Below are positions 1,423 to 57,695 of a stretch of 64,000 nt of DNA, piece by piece. Numbering within the stretch: position 1 is the first letter of the stretch; every line of letters starts with the position of its first letter. The notes under the pieces are model-generated. The model was given only the letters and a program-made list of their open reading frames with translations. It was not told the origin of the DNA and ran no database searches. Location of the stretch: the IMG/VR virus record IMGVR_UViG_3300031992_000007, positions 1 through 64,000 of that record, one strand, 5' to 3'. Made by a program: the position numbers and the translations under genes. The DNA comes from a virus (lineage: Duplodnaviria; Caudoviricetes).

Positions 1423-2268
1423 AGGTGTTAGTCCTGTATACGATAAAGCTTCTGCTAGAACAAATGGTGTACTAGATAGTGGGTTGGTTACTGCTGACGG
1501 ATGGTACTTCTTCTCTGAATGTGAACCTTCGGCACGCGGTAAAGTAAGGCTCTCCGGAGGTGTAACTCAGCGAAGTGATAAATTGTGGGGAACAAACTGC
1601 CTTTGCGTAGTTGGATACAGTAGTGACTACGGAACATTAAGTGGATACTGGTGGGCTCCTTATATCGAATCTGAGACACCTACATACAGGCTCTCCAAAA
1701 GGTGAAGCACGTGATTTCCCATCTATGGTTGTACAAGATTTGAGAACAGATGGAGATATAAGCTCCAAAATAGGTACCGCATGGAGCTTCTCCAATGTCT
1801 ATTATGCTGCCACATGGCAGATAGAAGGAAAGAAATATGACAGATGGCTCTCCCACAAGGTGCAGAAACATATGACGACTACATGACCAAAGAGTGGGTA
1901 TGTGTACATATTGGATCTATTGACAGATGGCAGAATGGTCTACAGTATCCAGCCGTTGGATCTTCAGGCACATACGGTAGAGGGCTCTCCTGAGGTGGGT
2001 CATCTAGACCAGGATTTGGAGAATGGATGATCGGAGGCAAACGAAAATCACCAGACAATGCGGATTCACCTTATCTATCTGTGTGTTCTTTTGGAGAATA
2101 CCTAAATAAACCAATCGCATGGCTCTCCTAGGTGGAAGCGACACTGGAACCAGTAATAAACTCCCACCAACAATGTTGATGTATATCCCAAATTGGACAG
2201 GTGGATTATTCCCAGATCAAGATGGACCAATGGCACACCGAGTCGGCACACTCAGATATAGGCTCTCC
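1423..2268 (+). repeat. cassette array 1: six (A)GGTG...GGCTCTCC-bounded in-frame peptide-coding cassettes
   Basis: Cassettes (GGT to CTCTCC): 1424-1555 (44 codons), 1559-1696 (46), 1701-1853 (51), 1859-1990 (44), 1994-2128 (45), 2131-2268 (46). All stop-free. Linkers gga, aaaa, cacaa, tga, ta. Confidence 0.9.
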
Positions 2269-2287
2269 TAACAAAATAAAACCTTAG

Positions 2288-2314
2288 CCTCAGGAGCCTC
2301 TAAGGCTCCTGAGG
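2288..2314 (-). terminator. intrinsic terminator of the lipoprotein gene, bordering array 1
   Basis: Stem CCTCAGGAGCC/GGCTCCTGAGG with a 5-nt loop; A-tract at about 2273-2281 on + is the U-tract on -. Confidence 0.7.
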
Positions 2315-10853: not shown

Positions 10854-11107
10854 GGAGAGCCCTGTATAGTCTCTACTATCAGGTTTTCCTGAAGGAGGAT
10901 TTTGATTGTTATACGGCCAATAAGTATTCCACACTTGTCCATAGATAACATGCTTCCCTTCCTCATTGTTCGCCTTTGTCGAATCACCTCCCGTTGGAGA
11001 GCCTGTGATCTTCTGTGATGAGAGATGCTGTATCATGTCGTGCAACTATTCCGGATTTATCTAAGTCGTATAGATAAGCAGTTTGTGACTCTATTAGTTC
11101 TTCACCT
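10854..11107 (-). repeat. cassette array 2, inverted part: two cassettes on the minus strand
   Basis: 11106-10996 (37 codons, GEELIESQ...EDHRLS) and 10988-10854 (45 codons, GDSTKANN...DYTGLS). Both run AGGTG...GGCTCTCC on - and are stop-free. Confidence 0.9.
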
Positions 11108-11110
11108 CAT

Positions 11111-11913
11111 GGTGTTGGTGTGTATGCTGGTGCACAAATGGCTAGACTGTTCTTGGTTTATGATCTCAAACAAGATCCCGGAAGAGTGGATTTCTACGGA
11201 TACATCCCACCATCCTACCCTAACAATAGCGCACCAAGGCTCTCCATCTAGGAGGTGTAGTAGTCCACACTGCTGCAATTATTGGCGTATCAGCATGGCC
11301 AAATGTATGGAAAGACGGTCAGGTGATGCAAACTGATTATGGTGGTCTGCAGGTGAATCATACTAGCAATTGGCTCTCCGCCGGAGGTGGAACAATAAGT
11401 GCTCAAGGTTATGATTATTGGGCTCTGATAACTAATATTGGAAGAAAAGCTCCGACTAGTACTGATTTCATTTACTACAAAGAAGGCTCTAATACATGGT
11501 CTAATCCAGGATGGCTCTCCCTTATCCAAAGGTGAAAGTCACCCTTACCCAAATATCGAAGGAAATATGAAACGTAAAGTGTGGAAAATAGAAACAACAG
11601 GTGACATTAGGGATATATACATGTACGCCTTCCCATCTGATGCAATAAGGCTCTCCGAGGTGGAGGTGAGATTAGAGCATATGAGCACTGGTTTGTTGGC
11701 GGTACACACATGTTAGGTAAAATAGCTGTAATACACAACGATGGTTATTATCTAGATGGAACGTGGGCTGATGCAGTAAGGCTCTCCTAAAAAGGTGAAG
11801 TAAGACCGTACTACCATTGGTTCGTGGATGGTATACACCAATTGGGAAAAGTGATTATAGTGTACAACGAGAGTTACTACCTGGGAACATCTGCTTATGT
11901 TGTAAGGCTCTCC
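11111..11913 (+). repeat. cassette array 2, forward part: six cassettes
   Basis: 11111-11245 (45 codons), 11254-11379 (42), 11386-11520 (45), 11531-11656 (42), 11659-11787 (43), 11794-11913 (40). All in frame and stop-free; linkers 2-10 nt. Confidence 0.9.
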
Positions 11914-56722: not shown

Positions 56723-57695
56723 AGGTGGGACAGGATTGGAATACCCATTTGTGAACTATGGGGATCCATCCAGCTCCATGATAAAGGTAATAAACCATAG
56801 AGGGAAATACTCTGCGGATTTTACTCAAGGACAATCGATCTTAAGTGCTCCTGGATGGCTCTCCAGGTGGGTACTTATACAGAACAGATGTAGATATATT
56901 CAACTACAGTGAAGGAGGCATTAGCGACCTAGGTAGATGTGGAATATGGGATTCTGTTACAACACATCCAATACAGAAAACCAGATGGCTCTCCAAGGTG
57001 GAGAGTATCTATACGTCAATCCACGAAACAACTTGTCTGCACGGGTAACGCAAATTAAATATGATGGCACCAGAGAATTTATTCCATATAACTCGAATAA
57101 ATCTAAAGAACAGAACGAATTGGTGATATGGCTCTCCTAGTGATGTGAGAGGTAGTACGTGGCAGTATGCAGCATCTAGAATAGGTGTTCAAGGTAGGTA
57201 CGGAGAATGGACTAATATTTGGAACTGGCCATACAGCTCTCGGTCTTATGAATCACCAGTAAGAGAGTTAAGGCTCTCCCAGGGAGGTGTAGGAATGCAT
57301 AGACCAGATGGAGACAATGGAAATCCTTGGGTATGTGGATCTACAACTGTAAACAACATTGGACAACCTCTGACGTATTACTCGAGAGTTAATCTTGGCG
57401 CAGATTCTGTGAAGAAAGTAGTAAGGCTCTCCCACTCATAGGTGCAGCAGATTTCGGATTAATGATGTTGACTGTGGGCTACCCTATGGGTTATGCAGAT
57501 CATGGAAACCAAGGAGTCGATCATCCTGACAGACCTAGATTTCAAAGGCTCTCCGCCGGAGGTGGAAATGAGATTAGACCTTTTGGATCAATTATTGACT
57601 TTAACGGTCAACTCGATTACCTAGGAAATGGGTGGGTATATTTCTTACCAAATGATCCGTTATGGACCAATAAGTCTTATTCTAAAAGGCTCTCC
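56723..57695 (+). repeat. cassette array 3: seven in-frame peptide-coding cassettes
   Basis: 56724-56864 (47 codons), 56866-56994 (43), 56997-57137 (47), 57151-57279 (43; AGGTA variant, with an in-frame AGGTG also at 57183), 57286-57432 (49), 57441-57554 (38), 57561-57695 (45). All stop-free; linkers 1-13 nt. Confidence 0.9.

Follow-up and report, generated by a model that had tools for sequence, protein, structure and literature searches.

A cassette array in a phiKZ-like jumbo phage as a probable silent donor bank for the tip of a fibre-like protein

The window analyzed here, which comprises 64,000 nucleotides (nt) of the IMG/VR virus record IMGVR_UViG_3300031992_000007 (positions 1 to 64,000 of that record), contains an array of six short coding cassettes (array 1, 1424–2268) that probably represents, with a likelihood that we would place at about 80%, a bank of silent donors for a system that copies cassettes and thereby changes the tip of a fibre-like protein. 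Array 1 would be one bank of a library that extends over the genome, comprises 52 silent coding cassettes without start codons, and serves just one expression site, formed by the last ~50 codons of a 1412-residue fibre-like gene. A cassette would be copied into this slot at the DNA level with the donor remaining in place, and the incoming copy would displace the previous tip while the constant ends of the protein, ...YWWLRSAGG and LSPLITIG, would be kept. This reading is based on the architecture of the library, on one perfect donor/expression-site pair in this genome, on the replacement of tips in near-identical relatives, and on tips of relatives that match silent cassettes; the six units of array 1 itself would be used in the same way.

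The acceptor is an open reading frame (ORF) of 1412 residues on the minus strand at genome positions 224574–228812, outside the window, and it is the only gene in the genome with this C-terminal domain. The 8-nt motif that closes every cassette, GGCTCTCC, occurs once more within the last 60 codons of the acceptor, as the 53rd copy in the genome. The last unit of another array (genome 243698–243857) and the acceptor at 224595–224754 are 100% identical over 160 nt; the identity begins at CTCC-GCCGGAGGTG and ends at GGCTCTCC, and the installed copy sits between GCCGGAGGT and GGCTCTCC. None of the 47 adenines differs between the donor and the installed copy, and the presence of both in the same genome indicates that the transfer was duplicative. 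The expression slot is the interval between GCCGGAGGT and GGCTCTCC-CCGCT, flanked in the protein by the two constant ends; in the region around the tip (genome 224400–225000), the constant part reads ...TGGTGGCTCCGCTCCGCCGGAGGT and the 3′ flank CCGCTGATTAC... The original prediction, made from the sequence of the window alone, had proposed discrete coding cassettes with noncoding linkers that break the frame, suited to grafting into an acceptor, rather than a broken ORF, and this proposal is supported by the existence of an acceptor with a perfect copy from the library.

Homologues of the acceptor were collected from ENA and JGI metagenomes, with the ENA contigs being read within ±10 kb of the acceptors. 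They are 41–64% identical over the C-terminal 413 residues, and every one has the sequence ...YWWLR(S/T)-AGG, followed by 40–57 unrelated residues and then (R/W/G)LS-PLITIG. The letters of GCCGGAGGT and GGCTCTCC are unchanged in the relatives, although the adjacent Leu-Arg-Ser codons have drifted. Within clusters of sequences that are at least 90% identical, tips are replaced wholesale: in P0009, the 10 full-length members carry 8 different tips, and two or more tips are present in each of clusters 2, 3, 4, 5, and 10. Two of the relatives, L034 and L020, are 99.6–99.7% identical across 24.7 kb save for ~145 nt of the tip. The tip of L034 corresponds to its own silent cassette, which lies on the other strand of its contig at a distance of 9.3 kb (161 of 164 positions identical), and the match is bounded by CCGGAGGTG and GGCTCTCC; one of the three differences is at an adenine of the template (A to G). 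L020 shares this silent cassette, yet another tip is installed in it, so that the silent copy is stable and it is the expression site that changes. A further match between an array and an expression site involves L036 (JGI contig Ga0265298_10027905), which is 80–83% identical to the window at 51.0–56.6 kb and has an array syntenic with array 3 of the window (seven cassettes of the same library on the plus strand, 56724–57695). Unit 2 of the L036 array is the cassette that is installed in L037, from another sample, with 100% identity over 335 nt; in L037 the installed cassette follows ...CTCCGCCGGAGGT. In the last 335 nt of L036 the array passes straight into the 3′ flank of an acceptor through the shared cassette, a junction that is either an assembly chimera across the perfect repeat or a real array/acceptor recombinant.

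The arrays also differ in content between genomes. The original prediction had named, as the observation that would speak against it, one continuous ORF in related genomes; at the site syntenic with array 1, the relatives have 0 units (L030), 2 units (L025 and L026), or 3 units (L027–L029), with the same motifs and unrelated cassettes, and never a continuous ORF. Orthologous cassettes occupy different arrays from one genome to another; those of cassettes from three arrays of the present genome are found together in one array of L023, which indicates that arrays exchange content over time. Between near-identical strains, silent cassettes differ several times as much as their surroundings: L025:8602–8883 and L026:972–1254 are separated by ~24 changes in 285 nt versus 8 in the 528-nt neighbouring gene, the protein product of which is identical, and the silent cassette at 598–761 in both L034 and L020 shows 5 changes in 164 nt versus 0.34% in the flanks. 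Some of these changes are clustered in adjacent bases, and the faster divergence could reflect relaxed selection, patchy conversion, or back-copying. The L035 contig stops 21 nt past the stop codon of the acceptor, and several assemblies (acceptor contigs of 4.4–9.4 kb) break at or near the tip, as is expected if tips are heterogeneous within a sample. The strains P0006 and P0032, which are at least 90% identical, carry the same installed cassette and differ by a tandem duplication of 5 residues (RDDFA), from which it appears that installed tips also change by small slippage events.

Array 1 consists of six consecutive units on the plus strand, each of which opens with GGTG after an A and closes with GGCTCTCC. 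The coordinates, the peptides, and the sizes of 44–51 codons that had been predicted were borne out when the sequence was read again, as were the linker lengths of 3, 4, 5, 3, and 2 nt. Cassette 1 (1424–1555; 44 codons, GVSPVYDK...GKVRLS) has the 5′ border cagA|GGTG and the 3′ border GGCTCTCC and is followed by the only in-frame linker of the array, GGA (1556–1558), and by cassette 2 (1559–1696; 46 codons). The linker AAAA (1697–1700) shifts the frame ahead of cassette 3 (1701–1853; 51 codons), as does CACAA (1854–1858) ahead of cassette 4 (1859–1990; 44 codons); TGA (1991–1993), a stop, precedes cassette 5 (1994–2128; 45 codons), and TA (2129–2130), which produces TAG in the old frame together with a frame shift, precedes cassette 6 (2131–2268; 46 codons), after which TAA follows directly. 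None of the units begins with a start codon, and none is preceded by an in-frame start. The spacer of 40 nt (1384–1423) that extends from the start codon of a divergent minus-strand gene (70–1383) to cassette 1 contains, in the frame of cassette 1, two stops (TAA TAG) and no ATG, GTG, or TTG. The array is closed by a hairpin with a T-run (2286–2307, minus strand), the terminator of a convergent minus-strand gene (2338–2868). No σ70-like promoter was found between 1200 and 2500 of the window by a scan for the σ70 type only. A second JGI sample is 100% identical across 1792–2898.

The interiors of the cassettes had been described as having no obvious mutual similarity, and among the six units of array 1 no two are similar at E < 1e-3; the one paralogue, that of cassette 2, is elsewhere in the genome (246389–246535, 61% identical), and the ratio of nonsynonymous to synonymous substitution rates (dN/dS) for this pair, 0.42, indicates purifying selection on cassette 2. 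Array 1 (SPECIFICALLY) has all of the structural features of the proven donors, namely in-frame (A)GGTG, exact GGCTCTCC, and open frames, and its units of 44–51 codons compare with 44–57 for installed tips. It is because array 1 is built exactly like the proven donors that a donor role is proposed for it.

The genome, which is 265,480 bp in length and rated 100% complete, contains 52 silent units in nine arrays and one singleton. There are 21 copies of GGCTCTCC in the window, versus 2.0 expected (100 shuffles, maximum 7), and 53 in the genome, every one of which is inside a cassette (52 silent) or the expression site (1). Outside the cassettes, the motif and its complement are absent from 258 kb in which 4.9–8.4 would be expected; 5% of 8-mers of the same composition are likewise absent, and avoidance of the motif is only suggestive. 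The earlier count of 21 cassettes in the window is correct (6+2+6+7): array 1 is joined by array 2, with an inverted part of two cassettes of the same library (10854–11106, minus strand) and a forward part of six (11111–11913, plus strand; the unit at 11386–11520 has an orthologue in an array of a relative), and by the seven cassettes of array 3.

The frame that the motifs set (GGT... to ...CTC TCC) is open in all 52 silent units, as compared with 2 and 0 units for the other forward frames and with 27% of random 45-codon windows. Gly, Trp, Tyr, and Asn are enriched among the residues encoded by the 52 cassettes, and dN/dS is 0.07–0.69 in the 7 homologous cassette pairs for which it could be estimated, including that of cassette 2. 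The border letters show no synonymous variation (CTC TCC in 52 of 52 units, GGT in 51 of 52), and linkers throughout the genome are 0–15 nt in length, in all phases, several of them being stops. The interiors are thus selected as protein and the borders as letters, which implies that the units must join something else at the level of nucleic acid. If (GG)AGGT(G) and GGCTCTCC bound the copied tract, the border letters would be fixed while the interiors vary as protein, and the length and phase of the linkers would be irrelevant because the linkers would never be translated.

With regard to orientation, 50 of the 52 silent cassettes are on the plus strand and the acceptor is on the minus strand; likewise, in the relatives L019, L020, L023, L024, and L034, all 26 silent cassettes within 10 kb of the acceptor are opposite to it in strand. 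With inverted donors, stray crossovers would give inversions and not lethal deletions. At the strand switch in array 2 (11100–11114), two opposed 5′ borders are arranged head-to-head (CACC-TCAT-GGTG) with no room for a promoter, which points to an earlier inversion, or to an event between two arrays, at the border motif. The singleton (genome 262969–263112, plus strand) has the same borders and its own downstream hairpin, and is in effect a one-unit array; if the genome is circularly permuted, it lies 3.8 kb before position 1 of the window. The phage is taken to be phiKZ-like because the neighbouring genes of its relatives match PhiKZ_MCP and phiKZ_IP.

The joints provide information about how copying may occur. 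The acceptor of L024 contains three cassettes with their linkers in tandem, and the constant tail follows only the third; the tips of other relatives consist of two cassettes or are truncated. The 5′ joint slips, as in L035 (GCCGGAG|AGGTCC) and in other tips that open with AG-E.. or AG-V.. and not AGG-... Known donors have 13, 9, or just 5 nt of 5′ homology, so that the 5–7-nt borders of array 1 qualify. Some tips share their start and then diverge, no clear mosaic could be traced to two donors, and replacement is mostly of whole cassettes. These joints look like the products of tract annealing at the 8-mer with resolution by microhomology in the GGAGGT region and not like those of a precise site-specific cut. 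In the mechanism that we prefer, the conserved (GG)AGGT(G) and GGCTCTCC would form the borders of the copied tract, and copying would take place by templated repair coupled to a break or to replication; annealing would be at the 8-nt 3′ motif, resolution would be by microhomology in the GGAGGT region, and recombination or replication proteins encoded by the phage would carry out the process. A more specific version, which is put forward tentatively and which we regard as possible but doubtful, is that a dedicated copy-and-paste machinery, independent of reverse transcriptase, recognizes GGCTCTCC and GGAGGT and moves whole pre-made binding loops from silent arrays to a lectin-like fibre tip and between arrays. 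Such a machinery may have descended from a diversity-generating retroelement (DGR), keeping an Avd-like partner and losing the reverse transcriptase. Were this version true, viruses would possess a programmed DNA rearrangement of a new class.

A fibre nature of the acceptor is suggested by its neighbours and by partial likenesses to them. An adjoining gene matches a tail-fibre PHROG, the acceptor residues from 1 to ~150–180 resemble the N-terminal regions of two downstream genes, one of which carries DUF6273, and residues 27–149 match part of the interior of a third ORF in the vicinity. The C-terminal domain is collinear with the DUF6273 paralogues (DKVWLMS/DKIFIPS, YWWLRS/TWWLRS, and SPLITIG/APGVV...). 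DUF6273 is reported to be a C-type lectin-like domain and a target of DGRs in gut phages, with the variable region on the surface of the domain or at its C terminus (PMC10743442; bioRxiv 10.1101/2024.10.15.618418). The slot would correspond to the binding loop region of a DUF6273/C-type lectin-like domain, and replacement of the tip would change receptor specificity. The acceptor protein itself has no match in Pfam or PHROG, and a profile search of 1.84 billion representatives found just 9 proteins, all of the same lineage. In viral contigs, a scan with the protein pattern and one with the pattern of the acceptor 3′ flank each gave no relative, and the four matches to the junction 18-mer were dismissed as chance matches in GC-rich phages. 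No conserved cis-element was found 3′ of the acceptor beyond an ordinary terminator hairpin.

Several observations weigh against a role for array 1 as a donor bank of this kind. The borders, 5–13 nt on one side and 8 nt on the other, fall short of what ordinary homologous recombination requires, and the analysis identified no dedicated copying enzyme. The six cassettes of array 1 match none of the 32 installed tips from public data, a small sample in which the absence of array 1 units says little, and cassettes 1 and 2 are present in no long protein among 5.8 billion clusters. Both assemblies of the acceptor of this strain (n = 2) carry the same tip, so that switching is documented in relatives and not in the population of this phage itself. 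The fibre or receptor-binding role of the acceptor is putative, being suggested by the neighbouring genes and by the N- and C-terminal likenesses described above, and the link to DUF6273 is weak by hhalign (33% probability over 46 columns) and marginal in Pfam (1 of 8 homologues, E = 0.0098). AlphaFold2 models of the last 280 residues of the acceptor had mean confidence scores (pLDDT) of 35.9 with an 8-row alignment and 43.9 with a 16-row alignment that included the DUF6273 paralogues, and are unusable.

Among the alternatives, the one that survives best, albeit as an unlikely one, is retro-transfer, in which the arrays would be multiple template repeats derived from a DGR, and the transcript of a cassette would be faithfully reverse-transcribed into a cDNA that replaces the variable region. 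The slot is placed as are the variable regions of DGRs in DUF6273 and C-type lectin targets, and the sloppy 5′ joints and multi-cassette tracts would fit integration of cDNA. In addition, 1.8 kb downstream of the acceptor there is a gene for a 333-residue protein with a match to PHROG 3206, "Avd protein of DGR" (E = 1.3e-7), and the relatives have a gene of 322–347 residues in the same place; this match is, however, not backed by Pfam or NCBIfam. The Avd-like gene (genome 221821–222822, minus strand, outside the window) matches PHROG 3206 over residues 5–140, which are followed by a tail rich in Pro, Glu, and Lys. Against retro-transfer, a six-frame search of the whole genome with PF00078 (RVT_1), which detected its positive controls, yielded nothing at E ≤ 10, and no ORF in the genome has a YxDD motif in a context like that of a reverse transcriptase. 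The perfect pair and the single A to G change among the three differences in L034 are inconsistent with adenine mutagenesis. Furthermore, the cassettes are in both orientations with respect to neighbouring transcription, and array 1 has neither an upstream plus-strand gene nor a σ70-like promoter. The Avd-like gene may be a relic or a partner, and for this reason retro-transfer retains a small share of the probability.

Still less probable is that the arrays are a by-product or an archive of discarded tips or decaying duplicates that are never reused. The content of the site syntenic with array 1 is wholly different among relatives (0, 2, 3, or 6 units), silent cassettes diverge faster than their flanks, and no unit of array 1 has been seen installed. 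Against this, 52 of 52 units have an open frame and the exact 8-mer, no pair with an estimate reaches a dN/dS of 1, and in L020 and L034 it is the shared silent cassette that is stable and the expression site that is variable.

It is very improbable that array 1 is itself expressed, whether through frameshifting or bypass into a repeat protein, in the form of six small peptides, or as a structured RNA. It is true that the interiors plainly encode protein, that the linker between cassettes 1 and 2 keeps the frame, and that AGGTG resembles the core of a Shine-Dalgarno sequence, but there is no in-frame start, the frame opens on the Shine-Dalgarno-like letters themselves, and the linkers of 0–15 nt are in every phase and include several stops. 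Two units in array 2 are inverted head-to-head, their 5′ border motifs being separated by 3 nt (TCA), a DNA copy of a cassette is present in the fibre-like gene, and a search of Rfam gave nothing for array 1 at E ≤ 1. Two particular forms of expression were rejected on the same grounds: a polyprotein made by programmed frameshifting or bypass (no start, linkers of 0–15 nt in all phases, some of them stops) and initiation led by the Shine-Dalgarno-like letters (no in-frame start at a usable distance).

There is equally little to recommend site-specific inversion or shuffling of the type found in the G segment of Mu and in shufflons, in which a recombinase reciprocally flips or exchanges segments. 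The inverse orientation of 50 of the 52 cassettes relative to the acceptor, and of 26 of 26 near the acceptors of relatives, would suit it, as would the short fixed border motifs and the head-to-head junction in array 2, but the coexistence of donor and installed copy, in this genome and in L034, is the mark of a duplicative transfer. The 5′ joints vary by a few nt, tracts may span 2–3 cassettes, donors are up to about 220 kb distant, and no recombinase family is represented among the nine genes scanned around the acceptor. Other candidates were discarded: borders of spliceosomal or group I/II introns (the letters that follow CTCTCC are not conserved), tRNA-like units (ARAGORN found no tRNA at array 1), integron attC sites (no inverted repeats), and β-propeller blades of a broken gene (nucleotide-perfect borders, linkers of 0–15 nt, and the DNA copy in the fibre-like gene).

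The donor-bank reading places array 1 alongside the gene conversion from silent cassettes that underlies antigenic variation, as in the vlsE/vls system of Borrelia, the donor sites of tprK in Treponema pallidum, and pilE/pilS in Neisseria. As in these systems, one expression site is accompanied by many donor cassettes that lack promoters and starts, copying appears to be unidirectional and duplicative with the donors unchanged, short conserved repeats frame the variable tract, and near-identical strains, here L034 and L020, differ only at the expression site. The present system differs from them in that it occurs in a virus (a phiKZ-like jumbo phage), with nine arrays scattered over 265 kb instead of one adjacent locus, in that replacement is mostly of whole cassettes, with borders of just 5–13 and 8 nt, and not by small mosaics, and in that the cassettes are mutually unrelated and not variants of one sequence. 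Moreover, the target here is a putative receptor-binding tip, as opposed to an antigen that faces an immune system. An expression site that is fed by silent cassettes is thus known from bacteria and parasites, and what is new here is its occurrence in a virus, the 5–13- and 8-nt borders, and the unrelated cassettes. Full-text searches of the literature yielded no description of silent cassette libraries for the receptor-binding proteins of phages, and no account of switching of this kind was found for any virus.

There are also similarities to DGRs such as that of the Bordetella phage BPP-1 (mtd/avd/TR/brt), since the target would be the C-terminal ~45 codons of a putative lectin-like domain of a phage fibre protein and information flows one way, from a silent template to an expressed gene. 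The present genome differs in having a short constant tail after the variable part; DUF6273 paralogues adjoin the acceptor and an Avd-like gene is nearby, but no reverse transcriptase was found and there are no adenine-specific changes. Where a DGR has a template similar to its variable region, this genome has 52 ready-made templates that are unrelated, so that diversity would be stored and not generated. Invertible fibre segments and shufflons (Gin/G of Mu, Cin/C of P1, and Rci of R64) have 2–7 alternatives beside the gene, which are switched by reciprocal inversion with a dedicated recombinase. They resemble the present system in that one host-recognition protein is given alternative C-terminal ends and the segment borders carry short conserved sequences, whereas copying here is duplicative, its donors are in distant arrays, and the nine genes scanned around the acceptor include no recombinase family.

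The known routes by which phages retarget receptor-binding proteins are point mutation, hypermutation by DGRs, inversion of a few alternative segments, and gene swaps with other phages. If the present reading is correct, ~50 stored, unrelated, ready-made tips that are installed singly would constitute a further retargeting strategy and the first virus equivalent of the antigenic-variation cassettes of bacteria and parasites. It would explain how a jumbo phage could track shifting host surfaces without DNA from outside, as well as the breaks or differences that assemblies of these phages show at one gene, and it would provide a natural scaffold-plus-cassette design for the engineering of phage host range. 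Borders that are so short and yet perfect to the letter point to a copying chemistry that has not been described previously and that is directly testable, because the donors, the acceptor, and the motifs are all defined.
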